In this document: positions 1-31,182 of the stretch, in pieces
Layout: every line of letters starts with the position of its first letter
Position numbering within the stretch: position 1 is the stretch's first letter
Assembly: GCA_036265775.1 (NCBI GenBank)
Contig: DATAOM010000355.1
Location: forward strand, 1 to 32,622
Origin: Ktedonobacterales bacterium
Lineage (GTDB): Bacteria; Chloroflexota; Ktedonobacteria; Ktedonobacterales; JADMIN01
Direction: 5' to 3'
Length of the DNA: 32,622 nucleotides
The notes under the pieces: generated by a model
Databases searched by the model: none
What the model was told of the DNA's origin: nothing
What the model saw: the letters and a program-made list of their open reading frames with translations, nothing else
Made by a program: the position numbers and the translations under genes

Positions 1-1587
1 CCAAGTGCGCGCGTCAGTCGATTGCAGCGACTCATTGAGTTGGGTGCGCCTGACGTGCTGGTGCAAAATGAGTGGAGCAATTTCCGGCAGCGAGCTCGGC
101 GAGGCCTCAATCAGGGAGTGGACATCTGGGAGGACCCGTCAGATCCGGCGGCCGTCGGATCGCAGCCCCGTCTTGACGCGCCGCTGGCGGACCAGTTGCG
201 CTACTGGGGCGAGTCGAATTCCATCTTTGCGATTCGGCAGACCCAGCAATCCAAGCTGCGCGACCTCACACGTCTGCGCGATTACAGCAGCAACCGTCAG
301 GTGGACGAGAGCAGCCTCGACGCCGCACTGGCGTTCCTCCATGCCGAGATCGAACTCGCCCGCGCTGCTCATCCTGATCGTCCGCTCTACGTCGTCAAAG
401 TGGACCTCAAGGACTACTATCCGACGCTTCCCCATGATCTGCTGCTCTCTATCCTAGGCCGCTTTGGCCTCACAGAGCGCGAGCTCGGCTTTATGCGCCG
501 CTATCTACGCGTGCGTATGGAGAACGGCAGGCAGACACAGATCGCACACGCCGGTGTACCGCACCACCGCCGGCTCTCTGACCTGCTAGGCGAGTTAGTG
601 TTGCGGTTGATGGACATGTATGTGGAGCGCGCAGCACGTGTCCAGGTGATTCGCTTCATCGACGACATCACCTTGCTAGCGGCCTCGCCAGAGGAGGCGG
701 TCAAGGGGTGGGAGGCAGTGCGATCGTTCTGTGCGGCGTGCGGTCTCACCCTCAACATGGAGAAGTGTGGCAGCGTCTGTGTCGGGGGCGAAGCATTGCC
801 TCTGGAGCTGCCACAGCGCGCGCCGCGTTGGCTGCTGCTGACACTCGATGCGCAGGGGCGTTGGGCGGCGGATGCGGCGGGTCTGGAGGTCGAGTTGGAG
901 CGTGCGCGCTGGCAGATCGCACACGCGTCCTCTATTCTCGAGCGGGTACGGCTGTACAACGCGACGCTGACGCACCTGGAACAATCCCTGGCCATCGCGG
1001 CGCCGTTGGGCGAGGCGCATCGCGAGAGTGTGCGCGCAGCCTATGCCCGCTGCCAAAATACGCTCTTTGGTCTGGAGACAGACGCAACCGGTATGCTGCG
1101 CGGGATGATACGTGAACGGTTCGTGGGCAACGGAGTGGCTGCGGAGGCGCTAGAGGCATGGCTGTTTTGGCCGATTACGGCAGGCGGGCTGGGGCTACGC
1201 CAGGCGCAGTTACGCGCAGAGAGCTACGCTGAGGCGTTCGCTAGGCGCACACGTGACGTCACGCCCGAGGAGCGTCCTGACGATTGGCAGCGACGCAGCA
1301 ACCCGTGGGCGCGCTATTACAGCTCGTTGCTCACTGCGGTCAGCCCCATCGCGCCGGAGCCCAGCGCCATGATGGAGACGCTAGTGAAGGACTTCATCAA
1401 CCGAGGCGCGGAACTATCGGCTGGGCAGCAGAAGACGCTCTCTCCCTACTGGCGCTGGATCCTTTATATCTACGGTCCCCAGATTCTCGAGTCGTTCGGC
1501 ACCTTCCGCTTCCTGTTCAGCGAATTGGTGCCGTTGCAGATTCTAACCAGCCGGCAGTCTGCGGATGGCGAGGCAGACGATGCATAG
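1..1587 (+). CDS. Reverse transcriptase-domain protein, 5'-truncated by the window edge (RT palm/fingers plus about 270-aa helical C-terminal extension)
   Basis: Frame 1 is open from nt 1; the listed ORF 22..1587 merely starts at an internal TTG. RT motifs are readable in the translation. Motif A: VVKVDLKDYYPTLPH (Asp codon 403-405). Motif B-like: AGVPHHRRLSDLLGEL (553-579, with the usual QG replaced by HH). Motif C: RFIDDITLL (FIDD 655-666). Motif D/E: GLTLNMEKCG (742-771). Stop TAG at 1585-1587. Confidence 0.8.
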   Translation, partial: PSARVSRLQRLIELGAPDVLVQNEWSNFRQRARRGLNQGVDIWEDPSDPAAVGSQPRLDAPLADQLRYWGESNSIFAIRQTQQSKLRDLTRLRDYSSNRQVDESSLDAALAFLHAEIELARAAHPDRPLYVVKVDLKDYYPTLPHDLLLSILGRFGLTERELGFMRRYLRVRMENGRQTQIAHAGVPHHRRLSDLLGELVLRLMDMYVERAARVQVIRFIDDITLLAASPEEAVKGWEAVRSFCAACGLTLNMEKCGSVCVGGEALPLELPQRAPRWLLLTLDAQGRWAADAAGLEVELERARWQIAHASSILERVRLYNATLTHLEQSLAIAAPLGEAHRESVRAAYARCQNTLFGLETDATGMLRGMIRERFVGNGVAAEALEAWLFWPITAGGLGLRQAQLRAESYAEAFARRTRDVTPEERPDDWQRRSNPWARYYSSLLTAVSPIAPEPSAMMETLVKDFINRGAELSAGQQKTLSPYWRWILYIYGPQILESFGTFRFLFSELVPLQILTSRQSADGEADDA

Positions 1588-1814
1588 GGGAATGGGGTCG
1601 ATGGGCTCTCGACGTCGCACGATTTGTGGCGCAGATGAAGAATTGCGGCAAACTCATTGGCACCCAACACCATTGGCGGATGAGATCGGAGATCGAGAGC
1701 GTCAGGACGTGTGGTAACAGAGCTGGAAGCGGCCTTGACCTGCGAAATGTCCGGTGGTGAGAGGCGGAAAAGAATTGGTGAGTAGCAGAGTGCAGAGCAA
1801 GGAGGACTGTTGCC

Positions 1815-2420
1815 ATGTGCGGACGCTATCAGTTACTGCGGCCCGAAGACATCGCAATTCGTTTCGAGGCGGTGAACACCGTGCCTGATCTCGCCGCCAG
1901 CAGCGATGTGCGCCCAACCCAGTCGATCCCCGTGGTGGCGATGGGACGCGAACTCGCTCTCATGCAGTGGGGTATTACGCCTGCCTGGGAGAAAGACAAA
2001 AAGAAAGCGCCACTGATCAACGCGCGCGCGGAAGGCATCGAGACGAAGGTGACATTTCGCCAGCCATTACGCTTTCAGCGCTGCATCATCCCAGCTACTG
2101 GCTTCTATGAGTGGCAGGCTCCGGTGGGTGGCGGCAGGAAGGTGAAATACCTGTTCACGCGCGCCGATGGCGACTTCCTGGCGCTGGCTGGTGTCTTTGC
2201 GAACTACAAGACGCCAGAAGGGCTGATGACGCGCTCGTGCGCCATCATCACGACAACGCCCAACGAGGTGGTCGCGGCCATCCACGACCGCATGCCAGTG
2301 ATCCTGGCGCGCAAAGACGAGGACGCCTGGCTCAATCCCGACGAGACGGAGAGCGAGGCGCTACTGCCTTTCCTGCGTCCACTTCCTGCCGAGGCGCTCC
2401 GTGCGCCAATCGCCGTCTAG
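1815..2420 (+). CDS. SOS response-associated peptidase (SRAP; YedK/HMCES family)
   Basis: Starts MCGRY with the catalytic Cys2. Other family hallmarks: LINARAE, GFYEW (Glu99) and HDRMPVIL (His157). AAGGAGGA lies 8 nt upstream of the ATG. 201 aa, typical for the family. Confidence 0.9.
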   Translation: MCGRYQLLRPEDIAIRFEAVNTVPDLAASSDVRPTQSIPVVAMGRELALMQWGITPAWEKDKKKAPLINARAEGIETKVTFRQPLRFQRCIIPATGFYEWQAPVGGGRKVKYLFTRADGDFLALAGVFANYKTPEGLMTRSCAIITTTPNEVVAAIHDRMPVILARKDEDAWLNPDETESEALLPFLRPLPAEALRAPIAV

Positions 2421-2506
2421 CGCCGGGCAAGCCGAACGCTCCTGAGGCCTGTTTCGTGTAGAATGAGTGCAAGAGACGAAAGACAAGGCCTCAAGGAGCA
2501 TGGTTG

Positions 2507-2737
2507 ATGAGCGACGATGTGAACTGGGACGAGTGGGACAGAGAAGAGCTCTTCATCCCTATGGGGGAGATCGGCAGGGACGACTCGTACGCCTATCAAC
2601 AATTGCTCCAACTGAAGGCCGATGGCTGGGAGCAGTACGACGCCGCCCGGCAAGACGACAATCCGCTCGGCTTCAATCCTGGCATGGTCATTTCCCTGCG
2701 ACGGCGAAAACAGTCCAGCGACACTCCACAAGAGTAG
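2507..2737 (+). CDS. Small acidic hypothetical protein (76 aa)
   Basis: AAGGAG at 2494-2499 lies 7 nt before ATG 2507 (the track's TTG at 2504 is one codon upstream). The composition is acidic and Trp-rich (DDVNWDEWDREELF), unlike the Arg-rich overlapping frame. TAGAAT preceded by TG at 2457-2465 is a possible extended -10. No family recognised. Confidence 0.45.
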   Translation: MSDDVNWDEWDREELFIPMGEIGRDDSYAYQQLLQLKADGWEQYDAARQDDNPLGFNPGMVISLRRRKQSSDTPQE

Positions 2738-2755: not shown

Positions 2756-4255
2756 CTACTGCAGGGCTGCGGTGAGGCGAGCGATATTCTCGGCCAGCCT
2801 GGTCATGGGCGAGCGCAGCTCCCATTCATGGAGATAGAGCTTGTTCGCTCGCGCCAGATAGCTGTCGAAGATCGGCTGCATGGCGGCGACGACGCCTTTG
2901 TCGTAGCAGATCAGTGTCACCTCCAAGTTAAGGGTAAAGGAGCGCAGGTCGAGGTTGCTCGAGCCGATCACTGCGATGTTGTCATCCACGGTCAGATGCT
3001 TCGCATGCAGCAGCGAAGGCGACTTGAAAAGGTAGACCTTGACCCCGGCGCGCTGGAGTTGCTCGTAGTAGGAGCGCTGCGCGTTGTAGACGAGGAACTG
3101 ATCGCCGATCTCTGATGAGATGAGGGTCACATCGACCCCGCGCTCCGCGACCGTCGTGATCGCCGTCATCAGCGCGTCATCGGGCACAAAGTAGGGGTTG
3201 GCGATGGTGAGCTTATGCTCGGCGGCATGAATCAGCTCAGTGTAGAGCTTGAGGTTGTTGTCGTCTGGGTAGCCCGGACCGCTCGGCAGCGTCTGGCAGA
3301 GCACGTCACCGCACTTGGTGTAGACGTCGCGTATCTCCACCGGCAGTTCATGCAGCAAATGGACATTTGTCTCAGCGTACCAATCAGTCAGGAACAGCCC
3401 ATTGAACTCGCGCACGACTGGCCCAGCCACCCGCGCCACCAGCTCCGTGTAGTACAGCCCCTTCCTCAGGTTCTTCTTCTTGTGATAGGTGCGGTCAATG
3501 AGGTTCTGTGAGCCGACGAAGCCGACCAGGTTGTCGATGACGACGATCTTGCGGTGATTGCGCAAGTCTGGGCGGGTAAAGCGCGGGTTGAAGAGCTTGA
3601 ACGGCAGCGTCAGATGCCACTCGATCCCTGCGTTGGTCAAGCGCTTGAGCATGTCTTTATAGCGCGGATAGGAACGGGATCCTAAGTCATCCAGCAACAC
3701 CCGCACCTTGATACCACGCTGGGCCGCCTGCTCCATCGCGAGAAAGCACTCCTCGGTCGCCTTGTCGAGCGCGATGATGAAGTACTCGATGTGGACGAAG
3801 TAGCGCGCCTCGTTGATCGCCTCCGCGATGCGCGCAAGTGATCCGGCGTAGTCGGGTAGAAGTTCAACACTGTTGCCATCATAGGCCGGCAGGCCACCCA
3901 GGTTGGTGTTGAGCGCCACGAAGCGTTGGTACTGCTCTGGAATGACCGGATTGACCAAGGCATGCGTCTGGGGATCGGCCGCCGCGATGGCTCTCGCCCT
4001 CGCCACCGTCTCGGTGATCAACTGGGTGGAGGTGCGCTGTTGCGCCCGACGACGCGCAGGGAGCTTGGGGTTGCCAATTAACAAGTAGATGAGGAGTCCC
4101 AGATAGGGCAGCAGCAGCATCGTGAGCAGCCACGCCGTCGCTGAAGAGGGTTTGCGATTGGTGGGGATGATGAAGAGCATGATCACCGGGATCGCATAGC
4201 TGATCACGGTCAGGATCTCGATGAGCAAGAGAACGATGTCCCAGTTCCACGTCAT
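2756..4255 (-). CDS. cls: Cardiolipin synthase (PLD superfamily, two HKD motifs), copy 1
   Basis: Two N-terminal TM helices, then two HKD motifs (HRKIVVIDN...GSQNL and HAKHLTVDD...GSSNLD). ATG at 4255 is preceded by GGAGGGGA. 499 aa, typical ClsA-like length. Confidence 0.92.
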   Translation of the reverse strand: MTWNWDIVLLLIEILTVISYAIPVIMLFIIPTNRKPSSATAWLLTMLLLPYLGLLIYLLIGNPKLPARRRAQQRTSTQLITETVARARAIAAADPQTHALVNPVIPEQYQRFVALNTNLGGLPAYDGNSVELLPDYAGSLARIAEAINEARYFVHIEYFIIALDKATEECFLAMEQAAQRGIKVRVLLDDLGSRSYPRYKDMLKRLTNAGIEWHLTLPFKLFNPRFTRPDLRNHRKIVVIDNLVGFVGSQNLIDRTYHKKKNLRKGLYYTELVARVAGPVVREFNGLFLTDWYAETNVHLLHELPVEIRDVYTKCGDVLCQTLPSGPGYPDDNNLKLYTELIHAAEHKLTIANPYFVPDDALMTAITTVAERGVDVTLISSEIGDQFLVYNAQRSYYEQLQRAGVKVYLFKSPSLLHAKHLTVDDNIAVIGSSNLDLRSFTLNLEVTLICYDKGVVAAMQPIFDSYLARANKLYLHEWELRSPMTRLAENIARLTAALQ

Positions 4256-5801: not shown

Positions 5802-7292
5802 CTATTGCAGGGCCGCAGTCAGGCGCGAGATATTCTCGGCGAGTTTTGCCATCGTCGGGCGCGCCACCCATTCCTCTAGATCGAGTCGCTTCGCGCGCGC
5901 CAGATAGCTCTCAAAGACCGGCTGCATAGAGGCGACGACGCTTTTGTCATAGCAGACCAGCGTTACTTCCAGGTTGAGCGTGAATGAGCGCAGGTCCAGG
6001 TTACTGGAGCCAATGACCGCGATATCGTCGTCCACGCTCAGGTGCTTGGAATGCAGCAGAATTGGCGAGCGGTAGAGATAGACCTTCACCCCCGCGCGCA
6101 GTAACTGCTCGTAGTAGGAGCGCTGCGCGTTGTAGACGAGGAACTGGTCTCCGATCTCCGAGGAGATCAGCGTCACATCCACCCCGCGTTGCGCCGCCGT
6201 GGTGATAGCGGTCATCAATGCGTCATCTGGCACAAAGTAGGGATTGGCGATGGTGAGCTTATAGTTGGCGGCGGAGATGAGCTGTGTGTAGAGTTTGAGA
6301 TTGTTGTCATCGGGAAAGCCAGGGCCGCTAGGCAAGGTCTGGCAGAGAACCTCCCCCGTCGCGCTGACTGCCTGGCGCGTCTCAGCAGGCAATTCTTTCA
6401 GCAGCATATCATCGGTCTCGGAGTACCAGTCCGTCATGAAGAGCGCATTGAACTGCCGGACAACTGGCCCCGTCACTCTCGCCACTAACTCGGTATAATA
6501 CAATCCTTTTTTCAGGTTCTTCTTCTTGTGATACGTTCGGTCAATCAAGTTTTGCGAGCCGGTAAAGCCCACCAGGCCATCGACGACGACGATCTTACGA
6601 TGGTTGCGCAGGTCTGGCCGGGTGAACCGCGAGCTAAAGAACTTGACGGGGAGCATCAGATGCCACTCGATGCCCGCCTTGGTCATCCGGTCAAGCATCT
6701 CCTTGTAATGGGGATAGGAGCTTGACCCCAGTTGGTCCAGCAGCACGCGTACCTTGACGCCACGCTGCGCCGCCGCCTCCATCGCGGCAAAACAGGCTTC
6801 CGTCGCGTCATCCATGGCGATGATGAAGTACTCGATGTGGACGAAGTAGCGCGCCTCGTTGATCGCCTCGGCGATGCGTGCAAGCGATCCAGCGTAGTCA
6901 GGCAACAGTTCGACCTGATTGCCAGCGTACGCAGGCAGCCCGCCTAGATGCGTGTTAAGCGCCACGAAGGGCTGATAGCGCTCCGCGATAGGCGGGTCCA
7001 GCAACGCCAGTTCGCCGGGATGCGCCTCGGGATTCGCCCGCGCCTCCTCGACACCGGCGGTGATCATCTCAGTGGCGGTACGCTGCCGCGCCCGGCGATA
7101 GGCAGGCAACTTCGGGCTGCCGATCAGCAGGTAGATGAGCAGGCCCAGGTAGGGGAGCAGCACGATCAAGAGCAGCCATGCGGTCGCGGACGAGGGCTTG
7201 CGGTTGGTGGGCACGATGAAGAGCATGATGATCGGCAGCAAATAACCGATCCCCGTCAAGATCAGCGTGATTCTGGCCCAATCCCAGGTCAT
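5802..7292 (-). CDS. cls: Cardiolipin synthase (PLD superfamily), copy 2, paralogue of 2756..4255
   Basis: Same architecture as copy 1: 2 TM plus HRKIVVVDG and HSKHLSVDD HKD motifs. AAGGAGGA lies upstream of ATG 7292. It is collinear with copy 1 over the full length and roughly three-quarters identical by eye. Confidence 0.92.
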   Translation of the reverse strand: MTWDWARITLILTGIGYLLPIIMLFIVPTNRKPSSATAWLLLIVLLPYLGLLIYLLIGSPKLPAYRRARQRTATEMITAGVEEARANPEAHPGELALLDPPIAERYQPFVALNTHLGGLPAYAGNQVELLPDYAGSLARIAEAINEARYFVHIEYFIIAMDDATEACFAAMEAAAQRGVKVRVLLDQLGSSSYPHYKEMLDRMTKAGIEWHLMLPVKFFSSRFTRPDLRNHRKIVVVDGLVGFTGSQNLIDRTYHKKKNLKKGLYYTELVARVTGPVVRQFNALFMTDWYSETDDMLLKELPAETRQAVSATGEVLCQTLPSGPGFPDDNNLKLYTQLISAANYKLTIANPYFVPDDALMTAITTAAQRGVDVTLISSEIGDQFLVYNAQRSYYEQLLRAGVKVYLYRSPILLHSKHLSVDDDIAVIGSSNLDLRSFTLNLEVTLVCYDKSVVASMQPVFESYLARAKRLDLEEWVARPTMAKLAENISRLTAALQ

Positions 7293-21870: not shown

Positions 21871-22040
21871 TGGAAGAACGGTATGGTTGTTTGACACTCC
21901 ACGGGGGCTAAAGTCCCATGGATTCTCGGTTCTCCGACGCGGCTAGCGCCACGCCTCCCCGAAGGCTCTGACCGAGCCACTCTATATTCCTGGCGGCGTT
22001 CTGGTCCCGATGGAGGCTCGTTCCGCACTCCGGACAAGCA
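21871..22040 (-). ncRNA. Predicted omega (right-end) RNA of the TnpB element, with a guide derived from flanking DNA; boundaries approximate
   Basis: By analogy with characterised TnpB systems, the guide RNA overlaps the tnpB 3' end and the right end. Here a terminal hairpin CCAUGGG-ACUUUAGCC-CCCGUGG (21899-21921) contains the tnpB stop codon in its loop. It is followed by AGUGUCAA and then flanking sequence ACAACCAUACCGUUCUUCCA (21871-21890). The 5' boundary is a guess. Confidence 0.3.
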
Positions 22041-23146
22041 TGCCAACGGACAGAGAGACCCTTCTGGACCAGCACGCCACAGCCAGAACACGTCTGGCTC
22101 GTGAACGCAGGATTGACCGCTATGACTCGCCTACCGGCGCATGCTGCCTTGTAGGTGAGGGTGCTCAGGAACGCTGCCCACCCTGCATCCTGGATGCTCT
22201 TGGCGAGATGGTGGTTCCTGACCATATTGGCGACCTGCAAGTCCTCGTGATAAATCGTGTCGTTGGCTCTGACCAGTGCCAGCGCCGTCTTATGATGGAA
22301 GTCTTGCCGCTGGCGCCGCACCTTCTGGTGCGCCTTCGCCAACAGTGTGACCGCCTTGCGGCGTCGGTGGCTGCCACGCTGGCGCCGACTCACTCTGCGT
22401 TGGGCAGTCTTGAGCGCGCGTTCCGCTTTGCGATACCAACCGGGGGAGAAGATGCGCGTGCCGTCGGAGAGCGTGGCGAAGGCTTCCAGGCCAAGATCTA
22501 TGCCGGTTTCCTGTCCAGTGGGCGGCAAGGGCTGTACGGGCACATAGGCGCAGGAGAAGCAGACGTACCAACCGTCTGCCTCCTTGCTGATCGTGACCGT
22601 CTTGGGCGTCCCCTCCAAGGGGCGAGACCAGCGCACTGCAATCCGCCCGATCTTTGACAGCACAAGGAAGCCGTTATCCAGTGTCGCGCCGTTGCCATAT
22701 TCTATGTATGTGAACGAATGCCAGCGAGTACGCGCCTGATAGCGGGGAAAGCCTGCTTTCTCGCCTGCTTTCACCCGGCGAAAGAACGCTTGATACGTCT
22801 TGTCCAGCCGCGCCAGCACATCTTGCAAGATGTGGCTATGGATGGCGGCGTACTCAGGAAAAGCGGCACGAATATCCTTGAGTTCTGCTGCTTGTTGATA
22901 ACGCGAAAGCGAAATCCGGCAACGCTGCCAAGCCGTGATACGTTGCTCTAGCGCCGTGTTGTAGAGCCAGCGGCACAAGCCAAGGGTACGCCCCAACGCC
23001 CGCTCCTGCGTGGGAGTGGACATGAGCTTGTGCTTGAATGTCTTGCGTACCGTTGACTGCTCCATACATCTCTATTCTGTCTGATTGGCGCAAAAATGGT
23101 AATAGCGCGGAATGGTGGCTAAAGCCACACACGCCTGACCGCGCGG
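21891..23146 (-). mobile_element. IS200/IS605-family element carrying only tnpB (IS1341-like); ends predicted from matched subterminal hairpins
   Basis: Left-end hairpin GTGGC-TTTA-GCCAC (23115-23128) and right-end hairpin GGGAC-TTTA-GCCCC (21904-21917) share the loop and closing pair. TTCAAC (23147-23152) lies 18 nt outside the left hairpin. TCAA (21891-21894) lies 9 nt beyond the right hairpin. This spacing resembles what I recall for IS608. Exact ends are inferred. Confidence 0.55.
21908..23065 (-). CDS. tnpB: TnpB (RNA-guided RuvC endonuclease; IS200/IS605 OrfB)
   Basis: N-terminal KTFKHKL.PT..Q...L signature. RuvC triad intact: GIDLG (D190), IYHEDL (E274), HRDQNAARNI (D354). Zinc finger CSGCG...CPECG (C326, C329, C344, C347). 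385 aa. Confidence 0.93.
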   Translation of the reverse strand: MEQSTVRKTFKHKLMSTPTQERALGRTLGLCRWLYNTALEQRITAWQRCRISLSRYQQAAELKDIRAAFPEYAAIHSHILQDVLARLDKTYQAFFRRVKAGEKAGFPRYQARTRWHSFTYIEYGNGATLDNGFLVLSKIGRIAVRWSRPLEGTPKTVTISKEADGWYVCFSCAYVPVQPLPPTGQETGIDLGLEAFATLSDGTRIFSPGWYRKAERALKTAQRRVSRRQRGSHRRRKAVTLLAKAHQKVRRQRQDFHHKTALALVRANDTIYHEDLQVANMVRNHHLAKSIQDAGWAAFLSTLTYKAACAGRRVIAVNPAFTSQTCSGCGVLVQKGLSVRWHACPECGTSLHRDQNAARNIEWLGQSLRGGVALAASENRESMGL

Positions 23147-24155: not shown

Positions 24156-27032
24156 TCATTTCAGGTTGATCGCCCAGATACTACGGCCGTGCGTCGCCGC
24201 AAACAACTTATGCCCGGTGCTGGTCGTCACCAGCGTGAGGCCATTGACCTTAACGATCGGCAGGCCGGAGCCAACCGGCAGCCAGTGGGAGGTCCCGCCA
24301 CCGATATTGTGCAGGACGCCGAAATCGGTGGAAACGTAGACGTCGTTGGCGTGCGGGTCGAAGGCGATGCCAGTGATTGGCTGGTCGCCGAGACCGCTGC
24401 TCAGATCCGTCCATGTCGCCGTGTGCGTCGCCGGATCGTAGAGGACATCGAAGACATGGCCCTTCGCCGTCCCCGCGGCCTGCGCGTATGCGTCATAGCC
24501 CGAGAACGAGATGAACGCATGGTTCGGATTGCGCGGATCGACCGCGATACCGCTCACAAAGCGCGTCGGCGTGTTCGGCGTGTCGATGCGCGTGTAGGAG
24601 ACGGTGCTCGCATCGCTCGCATCAGCGTTGGTGCTGATGAAGACACGACCACGGCGCGTGCCGGCCCACAGCGTGCCGGTATTGCTCGTCGTGCGGGCGA
24701 TGGCGACGACATAGTTCCCAGCGGAATCAGCCGGGCTGCTCGCACCCTTGTCCGCGCCGAAGAACGTGCCGGAGAGGTCGCCAGCGTCATTCAAGTTGGT
24801 CGACGGGAATGGGTCGTTCGGGTTGGCATAGACGCCACCCATGGGCACCCAGTCGCCGCACTTCGCGGCGAAGTCGCCGGTGAACTCGTTGCAATGCTGG
24901 TCGAGATAGGCTTGCGGGCCGCCATTATCCGTGGTGCGGAAGATGTGCTGCTCGCCCTCAAACATCGTGTCGGCCTTGGCCGTATTCGGATCGTAGATCA
25001 TCGGCACGTAGAAGGACGCGCCCTCATTGTTGCCGAGCGGATCGGCGATCCAGTCCCACTGGTCCGGCGCGCCATTGTGGAAATTGACGTCGTGCGCCGG
25101 ATTGAAGAACGAATGGAACGAGATGTTGGAGTGAGCGGCGTTGATGCCAGACTGGCCACCGTCACCACCAATCGCCTCGAGCCAATCGCTCGTGCCACCA
25201 CCCTGGATCCCGTTCATCCAGGTGCCGTTGTCCTGGGTGCCACCGATGAGCATGCTCGGATTCTGCGGATCCACCGAGACGCTCTGGAACTGCAGTGTCT
25301 GCAGGCCGGCGTTCATGGAATAGATACGCGTCGGCACCGCAGTGAGCCAGGCGTTGCAGAGAGCCTTGGAAGTGGCGCCGAGACCGCGGACATTGCACCC
25401 CAGGTTGGGGTCAGTGGCCATATTCGAAAAGGTCCCGCTTGTGCGCACAATGCCGCCGTCAGAGCCAGCGAAGGCGATATCGGGGTTGTTCGCGTCAAAG
25501 GCGAGCGCGTGCTGGTCGGGGTGCATCCCGATGAAGTTCATGTCGTAGCTCATGTCCGTGAAGCTGACACCCGCATTCGTGGAGCGCTGCACGGCGCGCG
25601 AGTTGGACCGACCCGCTAACTCTTCGTACTTAAACAGTCCACTGAGCCAGACCGTGTCCGGATGGCCAGCAGGCGAGGTGACGACCATATCGTAACTGCA
25701 CTGCGATGTGGTCTGGGTGCGGCAGAAGTCGTACGATGCGAAGCCGTTCGGGTTGGAGGCGCTGGAGTTGGAAAGCTCCTGCCAGACAGGGGTCGCGATG
25801 CTGGCGTCGTCGGTGCGATAGAACCGCGCGATTCCAGTCCGCCCATCAGCAAGATAGATGCGAAGCTTGCCGCTGCCATCGATCAGCGGAGCGAGCGCGA
25901 ACTCCACGCGGTTGTTCGCGCTGTTCGCAGGGTCTCCGGCGTCAAATGCGGTGAAGACCTGCTCGAACGCGCCGTTCGTGCCACGGAAGAGGCCGTAGTC
26001 GAACATCGAGAAGTAGAAGCGCCCTGTGGTCGTCGGGTCAAACGAGACCTTGGAGACACCACCGCGGAAGAAGTCGCTTCCGTTCGGAGAGGTGGGATCC
26101 ACCGGATCGGATGGTTGACTGAAGGTCAAGGTGAAATGTGCGCCACCATCGGTTGACTCGTAGAGGCCAATCGTCGGCGCGCCCGGGGGCGTGAAGCGGC
26201 CACCGTTCACAGACGACACGCCGTGACGGGCCACCGCGGTGCCAATCACAATGTGGCTGGCGTTGTGGGGGTCCACGTCGATCGAGGCGATCGAACGGCC
26301 AGCCGCCGCAGCCGGGCTGCCGGCGAGCAGGGTCCAGTGGGCGCCACCATCGGTCGTCGAGTACATGCCAACCCCGGCCTCAGAGTCGCTGGAACCGTTG
26401 GGTTCGCCGGTACCGACGAGGACGTGATCCTTGTTGGCTGGATCGACCCAGAGGGAGCCGATGGCCGCCGAATCCATTCCGTTCGGCATTGCCGTCCAGC
26501 TCGGAGGCGTCGCCAGCGCGTCATTGGTGCGCCAGACGCCACCGCCAGCGGCGCCGAGGTAGAGCCGGCAATCACCAGGATTGCAGGTCGAAGCCACGCC
26601 AATCGCCGTGACACGTCCCGATTCAATCTTTGGCCCGAACGAGCGGGACCATTCGACTGGGACGTTGCCGGTCGAGGGGCCGAGCGGCTGCCACGTGGCG
26701 CCCTTGCCATTCGGATCGCCACCCTTCACGATGCCGTTGTATGCATTGCGGGCATTGGACACCTGGGCCGGGGCGATGTACGTCGATGGATACGCCTGAT
26801 TGTCGTAGAGCTCCTGATTGGGGCTGCCAAGGTCGCTTCGCGGAGCCTCGGAGCCGGCATTATCGCTTTCAAACTTACCGGTGTGGTGGCTAAATGAGAG
26901 ATTGGCGCCTACGCTAGTGGGGCGCACGAGGAACGTGCTCGCGCTTACCGCCACCAGGGCAACCACCCCGACGACGCCAATGATGCCAAGGATCCGCTGC
27001 CGTGCGGACAGACTGGATAACCAGCGTTTCAC
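24156..27032 (-). CDS. Large secreted or membrane-anchored BNR/Asp-box repeat beta-propeller protein (VPS10/GH74-like)
   Basis: Asp-box motifs STDGGAHW, STDGGAHF and STNAGVSF, plus GTQDNGTW and TTDNGG. N-terminal signal anchor KRWLSSLSARQRILGIIGVVGVVALVAV. I place the start at GTG 27032 (G-rich SD AAGGGGGGGG ending 4 nt upstream, separated by UGUA) rather than the track's 27140. Confidence 0.85.
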   Translation of the reverse strand: MKRWLSSLSARQRILGIIGVVGVVALVAVSASTFLVRPTSVGANLSFSHHTGKFESDNAGSEAPRSDLGSPNQELYDNQAYPSTYIAPAQVSNARNAYNGIVKGGDPNGKGATWQPLGPSTGNVPVEWSRSFGPKIESGRVTAIGVASTCNPGDCRLYLGAAGGGVWRTNDALATPPSWTAMPNGMDSAAIGSLWVDPANKDHVLVGTGEPNGSSDSEAGVGMYSTTDGGAHWTLLAGSPAAAAGRSIASIDVDPHNASHIVIGTAVARHGVSSVNGGRFTPPGAPTIGLYESTDGGAHFTLTFSQPSDPVDPTSPNGSDFFRGGVSKVSFDPTTTGRFYFSMFDYGLFRGTNGAFEQVFTAFDAGDPANSANNRVEFALAPLIDGSGKLRIYLADGRTGIARFYRTDDASIATPVWQELSNSSASNPNGFASYDFCRTQTTSQCSYDMVVTSPAGHPDTVWLSGLFKYEELAGRSNSRAVQRSTNAGVSFTDMSYDMNFIGMHPDQHALAFDANNPDIAFAGSDGGIVRTSGTFSNMATDPNLGCNVRGLGATSKALCNAWLTAVPTRIYSMNAGLQTLQFQSVSVDPQNPSMLIGGTQDNGTWMNGIQGGGTSDWLEAIGGDGGQSGINAAHSNISFHSFFNPAHDVNFHNGAPDQWDWIADPLGNNEGASFYVPMIYDPNTAKADTMFEGEQHIFRTTDNGGPQAYLDQHCNEFTGDFAAKCGDWVPMGGVYANPNDPFPSTNLNDAGDLSGTFFGADKGASSPADSAGNYVVAIARTTSNTGTLWAGTRRGRVFISTNADASDASTVSYTRIDTPNTPTRFVSGIAVDPRNPNHAFISFSGYDAYAQAAGTAKGHVFDVLYDPATHTATWTDLSSGLGDQPITGIAFDPHANDVYVSTDFGVLHNIGGGTSHWLPVGSGLPIVKVNGLTLVTTSTGHKLFAATHGRSIWAINLK

Positions 27033-27436
27033 TACACCCCCCCCTTGGACTAGATGGTCACGAACTACGGTGGCGGAAATGGCTCGCAGCCAGCGCCACA
27101 ATTGGCAATCGGACGAATTGCCCCTACACAAGCGCCGCAAATGCCGTGTACTCGTTGCTCTAGCGTCACATGTGGCTGGAGCAATTGCGCGCCGATGATG
27201 CGTTTACACGGCGCAGCAGGAGAGATACGGCATGTGACATTCCGGGCCTCGTCCGAACGCAACGCACATTGGGCCGCTGCCCCTACACGCCAACCGACGC
27301 CTGTTGCTCCATTGCAGCAGGCGGACTTTAGCAGCCAGATTGCACCTCAGCGGAATCTCTGTGACTTCTCCTTGCCACTCCTCCTTTTGCTCGTTCAGCA
27401 ACAACGAATCTAGCGTAGTGTCTGTTATAGCTTGCA

Positions 27437-28371: not shown

Positions 28372-31182
28372 ATGATCGACCAATCTGCGGACGTCAGCGC
28401 GCAAGCCAAGACGCTCATCAGCGCGCCGGGAGATGACGCTGAGCTACTGGAGCAGCTGAAGTCGCTAGCCCTGGCGCACGAGGAAGAATTCTCCGCCTGC
28501 GCAGGCGTCTGGGCGCCGGGGCTATACGAGCGCGATCCCGACTTCTTCGGGCCGTTCCTGGTCGCCTACCTGGACACCAAGCAGGAGGAAGCCATTAAGG
28601 CGCTCCTGGCCAGGGCGGAAGCCGACGGGCATGATGAACTCTTCGCCGATCTCTATCAGAAGTTTCGGGATGAGAAGAGTTGGAACGGCGATGTCGCGCG
28701 ACTCGCGCGCGCACGCCTCTCCGACGATGAAGCGCTCAAGGCGCTGCAACGCCGAGAGAATCCGCGCTCGCGCTGGCGGTTGAGTGAAGGTGTGGCGCTG
28801 GCGCTGTATCGGCGCAATCCCGAGCGCTTCGGCGAGTTCGTGCGCGAGCACGTCCAGCGTGGCTGGAGTCGTCGCCCGGAACGCTATCGGCGTTTGCGCC
28901 GAGAAGCGCGCGCACGCGGTGACGATACCCTCTACTGGGCGCTCTTCCGCGACTACGCCAGCGACGAGGAGTGGAGGGCGAGCGTCCATCAATTGCTGGC
29001 GAGCAAGCCCCCAGCCAGCGCACTGATCGAGGAGTTGGACAAGCGGCAGCCAACGCGCGCCGTCGCGTTGGACATGAAGACGCTCACCAGCCTCGTGCGT
29101 ACCTACCGGCAAGAGGCGATACCGTACCTCGAACAGCATCTCTCCTCGGCGCCGGATTCTTTGCTCAAACAGGCTCGCAAGCTCGGCGATGAGACGCTGT
29201 ACTGGTCTCTTTTCTTCCTCGCTGGAACCTCCGCGCGCTGGAACGCCGACCTGCGCGAGCAGATCGCCCGGCCGCTCTCGGATGAGCAACTCGAAGAAGT
29301 GTTGCGCCTGCGAACGCCGCCGGAGGAGCGCCGCCACGCCTGGCGATTGGAGAAGGACGTGGCGCAGGCGCTCTACCAGCGCAACGCCACTCTCTTCGGG
29401 CCATTCCTCGACGAATTCGCTAACGGTGGCCTGGCCGCCCTGGAGCTGCCCCAGCGCATACAGGCGGCGCTCGGCGCCGATCAGGATCGCGGGGCGCTCT
29501 TGCGCGAGATGGAAGCGCTCGCGCAGGCGCCTGGGTTCTCGGAGCAGGCGCCGCAGTGGGCTCCAGCGCTGTACGAGCGCGATCCGCTGTTCTTCGAGCC
29601 ATTCCTGACTAACCACCTCTCTGGCGACCAGACCGAGGTCATCACGCAACTGCTCACGCGCTCCGAGGCGGCGGGACAGGACTCCTTCTTCACCGCGCTC
29701 TACCGCAAGGTCGCGCGGGAAGATACGTGGAACAAAGAACTCGCCGAGCTGGCGGAGTCGCCGCTGCCAGATGACACAGTGGTCCAGATGATCCTGCGCC
29801 GCCAGGCGGATAGCTGGCTCAGCCTCACCGACAAGACGGCGACGGCGCTCTATCGCCGCGATCCGGCGCGCCTGGGCGCTTTCGTGCGCGAGCATGCGCA
29901 GCACAGTTGGCGTGAGGAGGAGAGTTACAAACAACTGCGCGAGGCGGCGCGTCTGCGTGGGGACGACGATCTCTACTGGGCGCTGTTCCGCGAGCTGGCG
30001 GATGAGCGTGAGTGGCAGGCCGAGGCGCGCCGCCTGCTGGCCAGCGACACGCCTCCCGAGCGCATCGCCGAGGAGTTGACGAAGCGCCACCCCGAACATC
30101 TGTGGAACGTCGATACCGGCGTCATCGCCGACATCATTGAGAAATACGGGCGCGCGGCGCTCCCCTACGTCCAGGAGCATCTGACCTGGATCACCCGTCG
30201 CGCGGCGCCGAAGCTCCTCACGCGCATCAAGAAGCTGGGCGATGAGAACCTGTACTGGCCCATCTTCTTCAAGGCCGGCGACAGCAAGCAGTGGAACGAG
30301 GCGCTGCGTGAGCTGCTGGCGCAGCCGCTCGGGGCCGAGGAGTTGGCCGCTCAGCTTCCTCTGCGCACGCCGCCCGTGCGCCGCTGGGGTGGCTGGACCC
30401 TTGAGGAGGATGTCGCGCTGGGCTTCTACCGCCGTGACCCACAGCGATTCGCGCCATTTCTGGAGCGGTTCGCGCATGGCTCCTACGACGAGGCGCTCTT
30501 CGTAGAAGCCCAGGCGAAGCAGGACGAGGACTTCCTGGATTATCTTTCACTTCAGCTCTTGCGCCAGATCGAGTCCTGGCTCAACCTGGCGTATCCCACC
30601 GACTCCACGCTCCGGTGGCGCAAGCCGGACATGAAGGCGCAGGACAAGGTGCGGCGCACGGGGCGTATGCTGACCGACCGCTTCGACCGCCTCGTGGCGC
30701 AGTCGCCTGCGCTGTACGTACGGCACGCGGCGGCGATGCTGAGCCGGATCAACGCGTTTGAGGTCTGGTCCTTCAAGCGAAACCTGTCGTTCAACCCAGC
30801 GTTCGCCTACCTGTACACGCAACATCGCGCGGCGTGGCTCGCCGAGCCGGATGCGCTGCGCGAAGTCCTGGAGTCGCCCAATATCTATGTGCAGATTCTG
30901 GGCCTGCTGATGCTCGGTGAGGGTGGCGCCGACGCGGCGGAGCGGGCGCGCGAGAATCTGTTGATCCTGCGCGCCCTCCTGCTTGGTGGCGCGCATGTGA
31001 GCACGAAGAAGCTGGCGCTGCGCGCACTCGAGCTGGCGGCGCGCCAGGGAGAGACGTACGCCGCGCAGTTCCTCCCGGTCGTGGAGGAGGCGGTCCACCT
31101 GAGCGGCAGACGCGCGGTGGACCAGCAGGCGATGGTCGCGTTCGTGCGGCTACAACGCGAGCTGGCGGCGCAGAGCGCCTGA
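28372..31182 (+). CDS. 936-aa all-alpha repeat protein of unknown family (internal duplication plus HEAT/ARM-like C-terminus)
   Basis: GGGGGAGG lies 4 nt upstream of ATG 28372. Residues about 22-352 and about 371-702 are collinear copies. The motif ALY(R/E)R(D/N)P..F..F(L/V) occurs six times, and GD(D/E).LYW.(L/I)F four times. The C-terminal about 200 aa look HEAT/ARM-like (NIYVQILGLLMLGEGG...LLILRALLLGG...KKLALRALELAA). Confidence 0.85.
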   Translation: MIDQSADVSAQAKTLISAPGDDAELLEQLKSLALAHEEEFSACAGVWAPGLYERDPDFFGPFLVAYLDTKQEEAIKALLARAEADGHDELFADLYQKFRDEKSWNGDVARLARARLSDDEALKALQRRENPRSRWRLSEGVALALYRRNPERFGEFVREHVQRGWSRRPERYRRLRREARARGDDTLYWALFRDYASDEEWRASVHQLLASKPPASALIEELDKRQPTRAVALDMKTLTSLVRTYRQEAIPYLEQHLSSAPDSLLKQARKLGDETLYWSLFFLAGTSARWNADLREQIARPLSDEQLEEVLRLRTPPEERRHAWRLEKDVAQALYQRNATLFGPFLDEFANGGLAALELPQRIQAALGADQDRGALLREMEALAQAPGFSEQAPQWAPALYERDPLFFEPFLTNHLSGDQTEVITQLLTRSEAAGQDSFFTALYRKVAREDTWNKELAELAESPLPDDTVVQMILRRQADSWLSLTDKTATALYRRDPARLGAFVREHAQHSWREEESYKQLREAARLRGDDDLYWALFRELADEREWQAEARRLLASDTPPERIAEELTKRHPEHLWNVDTGVIADIIEKYGRAALPYVQEHLTWITRRAAPKLLTRIKKLGDENLYWPIFFKAGDSKQWNEALRELLAQPLGAEELAAQLPLRTPPVRRWGGWTLEEDVALGFYRRDPQRFAPFLERFAHGSYDEALFVEAQAKQDEDFLDYLSLQLLRQIESWLNLAYPTDSTLRWRKPDMKAQDKVRRTGRMLTDRFDRLVAQSPALYVRHAAAMLSRINAFEVWSFKRNLSFNPAFAYLYTQHRAAWLAEPDALREVLESPNIYVQILGLLMLGEGGADAAERARENLLILRALLLGGAHVSTKKLALRALELAARQGETYAAQFLPVVEEAVHLSGRRAVDQQAMVAFVRLQRELAAQSA
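28435..30477 (+). repeat. Intragenic tandem duplication (about 1 kb x 2, diverged) inside the repeat-protein gene
   Basis: Copy A is about 28435-29427 and copy B about 29482-30477. The protein-level offset is 349 aa (WAPGLYERDP at aa 47, WAPALYERDP at aa 396). Roughly 40% aa identity by eye. Boundaries are approximate. Confidence 0.8.

Follow-up and report, generated by a model that had tools for sequence, protein, structure and literature searches.

An intact rvt/UG37 reverse transcriptase gene and its probably unrelated SRAP neighbor in a Ktedonobacterales contig

Does a reverse transcriptase (RT) gene found immediately upstream of a gene for an abasic-site sensor belong with it functionally, or do the two only share a stretch of chromosome? 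The question is raised by contig DATAOM010000355.1 of a Ktedonobacterales bacterium (GCA_036265775.1; positions 1–32,622, hereafter, the window), which opens on its forward strand with a truncated RT gene, an SRAP/YedK-type gene, and a small acidic open reading frame (ORF). A preliminary description of this DNA had treated the RT as an orphan with an aberrant motif B and had raised the possibility that the first two genes form a pairing of a new kind, or are simply adjacent. Our analyses make it highly probable that the RT is an intact member of the rvt/UG37 family and that the SRAP gene and small ORF are unrelated resident neighbors.

The RT reading frame (frame 1, + strand) runs uninterrupted for 528 codons, starting at base 1 and closing with a TAG at 1585–1587. 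Extending the locus upstream, as the preliminary description had suggested, recovered the missing N-terminus. It came from public contigs that match the window almost exactly at first, with 6 mismatches over 4,750 aligned bases, and diverge from it further on. The full protein has 828 residues (P0001; loci L001 and L002) and differs from the window-covered part at one residue. Of this intact bacterial rvt gene the window covers the 3′ two-thirds: positions 1–1587 (+) carry codons 301–828 and the TAG stop, while the first 300 codons and a conserved leader lie outside the window. Past the stop, positions 1588–1640 (+) hold the remnant of a longer C-terminal tail, where in-frame read-through yields GNGVDGLSTSHDLWRR, a match to the tail ..EGGEFDGLSTADDLR of four related proteins (P0002–P0005), and blastn homology to two related loci (L063 and L065) stops ~35 nt past the rvt stop. 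Because this is the last stretch homologous to rvt relatives, the rvt block ends on the right approximately here.

The identification of this gene as a genuine RT was borne out by a Pfam RVT_1 match (E = 6.8e-15) and by the location of motifs A, B, C, and D, all on the + strand. Motif A (DLKDYY, 403–420) begins with an Asp, D435 in P0001 numbering, that is kept in 99 of 100 homologs; motif C (FIDD, 655–666) supplies the catalytic Asp pair, D521 and D522, each present in 100 of 100; and motif D (LNMEKCG, 751–771) contains N552 (99/100), K555 (99/100), and G557 (100/100). Of the PADLOC profiles, RT_UG37 matched with E = 1.2e-173 (577 bits, profile positions 299–773 of 778), compared with 5e-15 for the next-best RT model, RT_UG4, and values equal to that or weaker for all other RT models. 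The protein is homologous and collinear over its full length with those of 52 genome loci, among them one in Herpetosiphon aurantiacus DSM 785, whose protein is 38% identical over residues 1–821; the biochemically studied bacterial rvt reportedly comes from H. aurantiacus. According to Mestre et al. 2022 (PMC9226505), UG37 corresponds to the ‘rvt’ genes of Gladyshev and Arkhipova (2011), which are single-copy elements with an N-terminal coiled coil and protein priming; those authors found the defense prediction for UG37 inconclusive and left the class unclassified. By its sequence, then, the RT is assigned to the described rvt (reverse transcriptase-related, domesticated) family, UG37 in the UG/Abi catalog. 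The earlier placement among UG/Abi-type RTs was correct, and the label of orphan no longer applies.

Two other RT classes were considered and rejected. The group II intron RT model (TIGR04416) scored 57 bits against a cut-off of 300, aligning to the palm only, and the retron model (NF038233) scored 17.7 bits against a cut-off of 235; retron RTs are also typically ~300–400 aa long, compared with 828 aa here. These results agree with the earlier remark that the protein is far larger than a retron RT and has no recognizable maturase-X or endonuclease signature, and Pfam detected no endonuclease or integrase domain in the RT. An Rfam search of 5.2 kb around the rvt gene found no RNA family, including no group II intron and no msr/msd.

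One feature of the RT that had seemed unusual was motif B (GVPHHRRLS, 553–579, + strand), which reads PHH in place of the canonical Q-G form. The PHH is there, but it does not set this gene apart: Q-G is missing from all 100 homologs, among which the residue after the motif B proline is N in 36, M in 25, H in 16, L in 8, and Q in none, and the second residue is H in 26, G in 17, Y in 12, and N in 10. Other positions of this family-specific motif are strongly conserved (G485 in 100/100, P487 in 95/100, and S493 in 93/100), and ‘PHH’ is best read as normal family variation. An odd motif B might otherwise signal that the RT is what remains of a retroelement (a group II intron, retron, or similar) that is decaying or no longer functions, as might the nonsense codon that has shortened its C-terminal tail relative to close relatives; the segment lost, however, is less conserved than any other part of the protein. 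We consider such a remnant extremely improbable, since the catalytic residues D435, D521, D522, and K555 are all present in the window gene and conserved in 99–100% of homologs, and since substitutions relative to an 85% identical relative are concentrated at third codon positions (49/48/154 by position), which points to a gene under purifying selection and not in decay. Residue conservation and codon-position bias together rule out a decaying pseudogene, and the family-wide absence of Q-G, the low group II intron and retron scores, and the lack of intron or msr/msd RNA in the Rfam search likewise speak against the retroelement remnant.

The earlier report of a helical C-terminal extension was also confirmed. 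The thumb, a family-specific helical C-terminal domain, and a short acidic tail occupy 772–1584 (+; alignment A1 and AlphaFold2), and the ~270 residues after the palm were predicted by AlphaFold2 to be mostly helical, with pLDDT mostly 85–95 and falling below 50 in the last 11 residues; no Pfam domain was found in this extension. Invariant columns of alignment A1 fall in three conserved blocks on the + strand: WPITAGGLGL (1168–1197), YWRW (1447–1482), and GTFRFL..ELVPLQ (1498–1539). In the N-terminal region outside the window, which is conserved, the P0001 model has long helices at residues 4–36 and 83–121. Between a β-hairpin at 257–272 and motif A at 435 lie ~150 residues, an insert whose segment 335–403 is the most gap-rich and is modeled with low confidence; this long, variable insert before motif A is consistent with reports of a large loop, termed 2a, that separates motifs 2 and 3 in rvt (PMC5718144). 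A search by sequence found no solved rvt structure, and Foldseek returned only generic RT matches (TM 0.2–0.4), the closest being non-LTR RTs (R2 and LINE-1) and DRT9.

The SRAP gene (1815–2420, +, 201 aa) is intact, as had been stated. Its product matched Pfam SRAP (PF02586) with E = 1.1e-56 and 192 bits against a cut-off of 27.1 bits, covering profile positions 1–203 of 214; it retains Cys2, Glu99, and His157, the residues named earlier, as well as Asn69; and its sequence aligns with the solved YedK and HMCES structure chains. Compared with E. coli YedK (222 aa profile), the window protein is shorter, and it scores below the cut-off of NCBIfam PRK09951 (58.8 against 349 bits). Judging from the family and the catalytic residues, it most likely does what SRAP proteins usually do, which is to shield abasic sites in single-stranded DNA (ssDNA) covalently. 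SRAP paralogs in these bacteria also adjoin relaxase and coupling-protein genes. The small acidic ORF that follows (2507–2737, +, 76 aa) is open at 2504–2737, with ATG 2507 the likelier start, as AAGGAG stands 8 nt upstream. It had been described as acidic, which its 17 acidic and 8 basic residues confirm, and it is a real coding gene because its substitutions relative to the orthologous locus L061 number 4, 4, and 21 at the first, second, and third codon positions, changing 18 codons synonymously and 6 non-synonymously. A search of 1.84 billion representative proteins gave one orthologous cluster, 91% identical, and five other matches, all weak and local and all to proteins of much greater length; no family for it was found in Pfam, PADLOC, or NCBIfam. 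The ORF is restricted to this lineage and accompanies SRAP, which it also follows in L061 and in the P0125 contig.

The distance from the RT stop to the SRAP start is 227 bp on the same strand, as originally described, and no terminator-like site was found between them, so read-through transcription from rvt into SRAP is possible. RT-type and SRAP-type proteins both deal with single-stranded nucleic acid, and one could picture a functional module of rvt and SRAP, perhaps including the small ORF, in which SRAP protects or processes abasic sites in the protein-linked single-stranded product of rvt. We examined this idea by comparing the surroundings of rvt genes. Of the other rvt loci, 53 have downstream sequence of 1 kb or more, and SRAP was found near rvt in only one of these (L029, a Planctomycetales MAG), an outcome that the preliminary description had itself named as refuting the pairing. 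In L029, SRAP lies 212 bp downstream of rvt on the same strand, and the rvt protein is 34% identical to that of the window. SRAP directly downstream of rvt is seen, in all, in two distant phyla. The independent adjacency in a phylogenetically distant locus favors the module, but the nearest rvt relatives of L029 (at most 50% identity) are without SRAP, and a single extra case is not significant because ~0.1–0.3 SRAP occurrences are expected by chance (~736 kb of flanking sequence, one or two SRAP genes per genome). Nor were SRAP genes overlooked: a sensitive search with an HMM built from 60 SRAPs, run on six-frame translations of all rvt loci, revealed no hidden copies and matched only in the window lineage and L029.

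Closer relatives are more telling. Rvt relatives that are 79–85% identical occupy at least five other contexts, and none of those sampled with downstream sequence has SRAP. Conversely, two loci with SRAP orthologs, L061 (92% identical) and the P0125 contig (86%), keep the row of AIRS, RNase III, SRAP, and small ORF without rvt, having only 113–132 bp at the rvt position. In L062, where SRAP is 75% identical, the same junction is occupied by a gene for an HNH endonuclease together with another SRAP gene. SRAP also has its own conserved 5′ region: positions 1709–1814 (+) are 86% identical to the pre-SRAP region of L062, where the upstream neighbor gene is different and yet 110 nt before SRAP are shared, so the conservation of these 110 nt does not depend on rvt. 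The region probably comprises the SRAP promoter and a 5′ UTR in which AAGGAGG is the Shine-Dalgarno sequence; the intergenic DNA of L061 differs from this 5′ region common to the window and L062, and no LexA-type box or sigma-70 promoter was recognized before SRAP by eye or by scanning. All-against-all clustering of ORFs within 6 kb of 54 rvt loci found no conserved neighbors beyond within-genus synteny (Herpetosiphon) and hisG. No publication linking SRAP/YedK to reverse transcriptase came up in a search of the literature. Because rvt is an extra block in a row that close relatives keep without it, we regard SRAP and the small ORF as unrelated to rvt: most likely they are a resident gene row with its own upstream region, and SRAP most likely acts independently of rvt. 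The suggested RT–SRAP pairing shows no conserved linkage, and a functional module of the two is very unlikely, although, given the L029 adjacency, a weak or facultative link may exist.

The rvt ORF and its leader (~130–170 nt) form a block of ~2.7 kb between the RNase III and SRAP genes, a junction that varies among close relatives. The left boundary of the block could be placed only to within ~20 nt and the right one to within ~65 nt. Its ends showed neither terminal repeats, whether direct or inverted, nor a duplicated target; the presence or absence of rvt may reflect insertion here or loss elsewhere. The leader is conserved in eight loci and six genomic contexts, always adjoining rvt; a pattern scan of metagenomes added only three loci, which did not suffice to build a covariance model. 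More distant homologs have no counterpart, and the Herpetosiphon rvt starts ~30 nt after hisG. We also observed hisG near rvt in three lineages, directly upstream in two phyla.

A conserved leader that always accompanies the gene raises the possibility of a DRT-like single-gene anti-phage RT, with a nearby noncoding RNA serving as template as in DRT2, DRT9, and DRT10. PADLOC classes its RT_UG37 model with the DRT systems, the structural matches include DRT9, and the block varies in presence among close relatives, as defense genes often do. We nevertheless consider such a system unlikely. RNAalifold on seven leader sequences found no covariation (the covariation term of +1.11 is unfavorable, with one compensatory pair), the leader is missing in the more distant homologs, and it gave no Rfam match. 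The neighbors at this and other rvt loci are housekeeping or transport genes and form no defense island, and across the 52 genome loci no neighbor is conserved apart from synteny within a genus; no defense genes were found nearby. The published defense prediction for UG37 was inconclusive (PMC9226505), and the activity reported for rvt is non-templated (PMC10680173).

About a quarter of rvt homologs carry acidic, disordered C-terminal tails resembling that of SSB, the protein that binds single-stranded DNA, with tips such as DDDIPF, EEIPF, and DDHPF. SSB recruits partner proteins through its C-terminal peptide, which these tail tips resemble. In a broader interpretation, rvt would be wired into ssDNA maintenance through its SSB-like tails, its adjacency to SRAP would not be pure chance, and the leader could be a bound RNA. 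If so, the rvt tail would dock on SSB partners or compete with SSB for them, and the protein-linked polynucleotide made by rvt would have its effect under stress, where forks have stalled or ssDNA gaps have opened. We hold this scenario to be improbable.

Under our preferred reading, of an intact rvt/UG37 gene beside unrelated neighbors, the result is mainly corrective: what looked like an RT newly paired with a sensor of abasic sites is a known rvt/UG37 gene that stands by chance beside a resident SRAP gene. The locus nevertheless offers a clean natural comparison, in which the row of AIRS, RNase III, and SRAP either contains the 2.7-kb block of leader and rvt or lacks it. This presence and absence, together with the occurrence of near-relatives of rvt in at least six genomic contexts, bears on the way in which a domesticated RT that is supposedly non-mobile passes from one genome to another. 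The SSB-like tips and the upstream hisG may offer testable handles on rvt function, although neither is a property of the RT–SRAP pair that was originally flagged.

A meeting report (PMC10680173) describes non-templated polymerization by rvt and stress relief that requires the catalytic residues, as well as purifying selection and frequent horizontal transfer of the genes. By homology to other rvt proteins, the window RT is likely a stress-related, protein-primed, non-templated polymerase. We propose that the 828-aa protein would multimerize through its helical N-terminal region, that the RT palm and the family-specific C-terminal domain would start synthesis on the protein itself (protein priming), and that nucleotides would then be added without a template.

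Among better-known systems, the UG/Abi class 1 polymerases AbiK, Abi-P2, and AbiA have the same reported mode of protein priming and non-templated synthesis and likewise carry a helical C-terminal domain past the palm (PMC9226505, PMC9508834, PMC11077055). The similarity of these proteins to rvt is nevertheless confined to the palm (PADLOC AbiP2 E = 4e-7, against 1e-173 for UG37); they are without the 300-aa N-terminal region of rvt, rvt has no defense-island context, and its closest structural matches are not Abi polymerases. With the rvt family the window protein shares the length (~800–850 aa), the family-specific C-terminal domain, the stand-alone gene without retroelement RNA or endonuclease, and the purifying selection and signs of horizontal movement, both reported for the family (PMC10680173). 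Within that family the window protein is distinct: its acidic tail is shortened and lacks the IPF tip found in a quarter of homologs, it is only 38% identical to the H. aurantiacus protein, and the Ktedonobacterales subclade in which it falls has a conserved 5′ leader of its own.

The reverse transcriptase (RT) at the window edge is a further member of the already known rvt ("reverse transcriptase-related") family. Its reading frame, open for 528 codons from base 1 (positions 1–1587, forward strand, frame 1, TAG at 1585–1587), matches Pfam RVT_1 (E = 6.8e-15) and contains all the motifs reported for it: A (DLKDYY, nt 403–420), B (GVPHHRRLS, nt 553–579), C (FIDD, nt 655–666) and D (LNMEKCG, nt 751–771). 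The suspected UG/Abi-type class was borne out by PADLOC, which places the fragment in UG37 (RT_UG37, E = 1.2e-173, profile positions 299–773 of 778); its remaining RT models gave palm-only matches at E = 5e-15 or weaker. Because the RT_UG37 match begins at position 299, about 300 N-terminal residues are absent from the fragment. The JGI metagenome contigs L001 and L002 both encode a near-identical protein in full (P0001, 828 aa). L001 has six mismatches to the window over the first 4,750 aligned bases, diverges further along, and supplies the upstream DNA absent from the window. According to Mestre et al. (2022), UG37 "corresponds to rvt elements" and was kept unclassified, its defence prediction being inconclusive (PMC9226505). 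Group II intron and retron RTs were rejected (57 bits vs a 300-bit cut-off and 17.7 bits vs a cut-off of 235, respectively), and an Rfam search of 5.2 kb around the gene returned no RNA family. Scanning one genome per species, we found end-to-end rvt homology at 52 loci, mostly in Chloroflexota (Ktedonobacterales, Herpetosiphon) and Planctomycetota. One of them, in Herpetosiphon aurantiacus DSM 785, is 38% identical over residues 1–821; the bacterial RVT characterised biochemically comes from that species.

The PHH sequence in motif B, previously considered a peculiarity of this RT, is ordinary for the rvt family, since both positions that are canonically Gln and Gly vary across 100 full-length homologues. 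The consensus is G(100)-V/I/L-P(95)-x-x-R/H-x-L(89)-S(93); the Gln position holds N, M, H, L and others but Q in none of the 100, and the Gly position holds H (26), G (17), Y (12), N (10) and others. In canonical RTs this Gln contacts the incoming nucleotide, and its loss would fit reports that rvt uses nucleotides unusually and synthesises without a template. The window RT retains the catalytic residues, which are conserved among homologues (P0001 numbering: D435 and K555, 99/100 each; D521 and D522, 100/100), and substitutions relative to genes at 85%, 83% and 93% identity fall roughly 1:1:3 by codon position. The gene is under purifying selection, and an RT in decay is excluded by the conserved catalytic residues together with the third-position bias.

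P0001 was modelled with AlphaFold2 from 24 homologues (mean pLDDT 80, pTM 0.83). The N-terminal region is helical, its long helices spanning 4–36 and 83–121, and is followed by a beta-hairpin at 257–272, a long variable segment at 300–425 consistent with the published "loop 2a" (PMC5718144), the palm at 429–560, and a helical thumb and C-terminal domain modelled with confidence, which hold the most conserved rvt blocks (WPITAGGLGL, YWRW and GTFRFL..ELVPLQ). The tail at the end of the model is acidic and disordered. Against the PDB, Foldseek gave only generic RT matches (TM 0.2–0.4; R2, LINE-1 ORF2p, DRT9, group II intron RTs and G2L4), and a sequence search found no solved rvt structure. In 24 of the 100 homologues (among them P0032, P0035–P0038, P0040, P0041 and P0094) the acidic tail carries a DDDIPF, EEIPF or DDHPF tip, and in a further nine it ends in F; DDDIPF is the conserved C-terminal hexapeptide of SSB that binds SSB partner proteins (PMC5872125). 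The window tail (1540–1640 region) is acidic and shortened (..SADGEADDA), without such a tip; a longer tail is cut by the TAG at 1585, and its remainder is still recognisable in the DNA downstream.

Downstream, the preliminary description had noted an intact SRAP/YedK-type gene and a small acidic ORF, both of which are there. The SRAP gene (1815–2420, forward strand, 201 aa) has a full-length PF02586 match (192 bits), retains the active-site residues Cys2, Asn69, Glu99 and His157, and aligns with YedK and HMCES chains of known structure. For the small ORF (2507–2737, forward strand, 76 aa; 17 acidic and 8 basic residues), the most probable start codon is the ATG at 2507, preceded 8 nt upstream by AAGGAG. 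The ORF is a real gene, because its substitutions relative to L061, an SRAP-side relative, concentrate at third codon positions (4/4/21 by codon position; 18 synonymous vs 6 non-synonymous codons). Pfam, PADLOC and NCBIfam hold no family for it; among 1.84 billion representative proteins, a single cluster is orthologous (91% identical), and the remaining five matches are weak, local and to much longer proteins.

The same description had paired the RT with SRAP and the small ORF. We searched all fetched loci by tblastn and then with an SRAP HMM on six-frame translations; SRAP turned up near rvt in just two cases, the window lineage and L029, a Planctomycetales MAG locus with the order hisG, rvt, SRAP. 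Of the 53 other rvt loci with at least 1 kb downstream (~736 kb of flank examined), L029 is thus the single case, and since the window was the reason for looking, it alone counts as independent; chance would yield 0.1–0.3 SRAP hits in that flank at one or two SRAP genes per genome. SRAP is absent near L029's nearest rvt relatives and near the close rvt relatives P0005, P0006, P0007, P0008, P0011 and L063 (79–85% identity), whose neighbourhoods are quite different from the window's, and L064, a 93% relative, has no RNase III gene upstream. A facultative rvt–SRAP module, for which L029 and the lack of a detected terminator between the two genes could be cited, is very improbable, and the comparison from the SRAP side is decisive against the pairing. 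In L061 and the P0125 contig (SRAP orthologues 92% and 86% identical) the row runs protein kinase, 119-aa ORF, AIR-synthase-like gene, RNase III, SRAP, small ORF, continuing in L061 into cardiolipin synthase, with only 113–132 bp and no rvt between RNase III (95% identical, L061 vs window lineage) and SRAP. SRAP is not a partner of rvt, the two being merely adjacent, and the small ORF, which follows SRAP in these rvt-less relatives too, is a lineage-restricted companion of SRAP and not of the RT. The most likely role of SRAP is the one it has in other bacteria, independent of rvt.

Homology between L061 and the window lineage stops ~8 nt past the RNase III stop and returns at the SRAP ATG, while homology to other rvt loci extends from 130–170 nt before the rvt start to ~35 nt past its stop; the 110 nt before SRAP (window 1709–1814) are 86% identical to the region upstream of SRAP in L062 (SRAP 75%). 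From these boundaries, a ~2.7-kb block of leader and rvt fills a variable junction, leaving SRAP with a 5′ region of its own. The block has no terminal repeats. The junction differs among close relatives: it is 113 bp in L061 (5885–6000), holds the rvt block in the window lineage (L001 9085–11999), and in L062 (2767–6000) contains an RRXRR/HNH endonuclease gene, a second SRAP and two small ORFs, with a resolvase gene after the main SRAP. SRAP paralogues 69–74% identical to the window's adjoin Replic_Relax relaxase and TrwB-like coupling-protein genes (L066 1299–5606, L067 1549–5606), indicating that SRAP is also carried on conjugative elements in this bacterial group.

The window is not a defence island; the rest of it encodes transporters, PPK2, a P-type ATPase, two cardiolipin synthase paralogues and TnpB. 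The paralogues (2756–4255, 499 aa; 5802–7292, 496 aa; both reverse strand; each with PLDc_N and two PLDc_2 domains) are separated by 1.5 kb, with a TM7S3/TM198-like membrane protein gene in between. The TnpB/IS605 OrfB-type gene (21908–23065, reverse strand; OrfB_IS605, Cas12f1-like TNB and HTH domains) has no tnpA noted nearby. Two ORFs lack a Pfam family, one of 994 aa (24156–27140, reverse strand; a faint glycosylhydrolase-like NCBIfam match only) and one of 936 aa (28372–31182, forward strand; no NCBIfam match); both gene calls are uncertain because long ORFs overlap them on the opposite strand.

Near rvt, hisG (ATP phosphoribosyltransferase) occurs in L010, L012, L013, L014, L031, L037 (6946–7971), L029 (6733–7974) and L039 (4031–4909); in Herpetosiphon species and the Planctomycetales MAG it immediately precedes rvt on the same strand, and in a Gemmataceae MAG it lies 2 kb upstream. 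The adjacency is suggestive because a role for rvt under amino-acid starvation has been reported (meeting report PMC10680173), and was not significant by a rough collision estimate.

In Ktedonobacterales, rvt genes from six different genomic contexts share a conserved leader of ~130–170 nt ahead of the start codon (L001 9113–9285, upstream of the window; equivalents in L003, L055, L057, L058, L063, L064 and L065), and a metagenome-wide pattern scan found it only beside rvt. It could be a promoter with 5′ UTR, or a bound RNA. Its conservation across contexts would suit a DRT-like system with the leader as ncRNA, but we consider such a system unlikely: the leader lacks covariation, more distant rvt homologues do not have it, the surroundings are not a defence context, and the reported rvt activity is non-templated. 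Published descriptions of the family mention soil dwelling, purifying selection and frequent horizontal transfer (PMC10680173; PMC9226505), of which the selection and the movement between contexts were observed directly here. Enzymology and physiology are inferred from membership in the rvt family: the RT most likely works as a multimer, primes its own synthesis and polymerises nucleotides in a non-templated manner.
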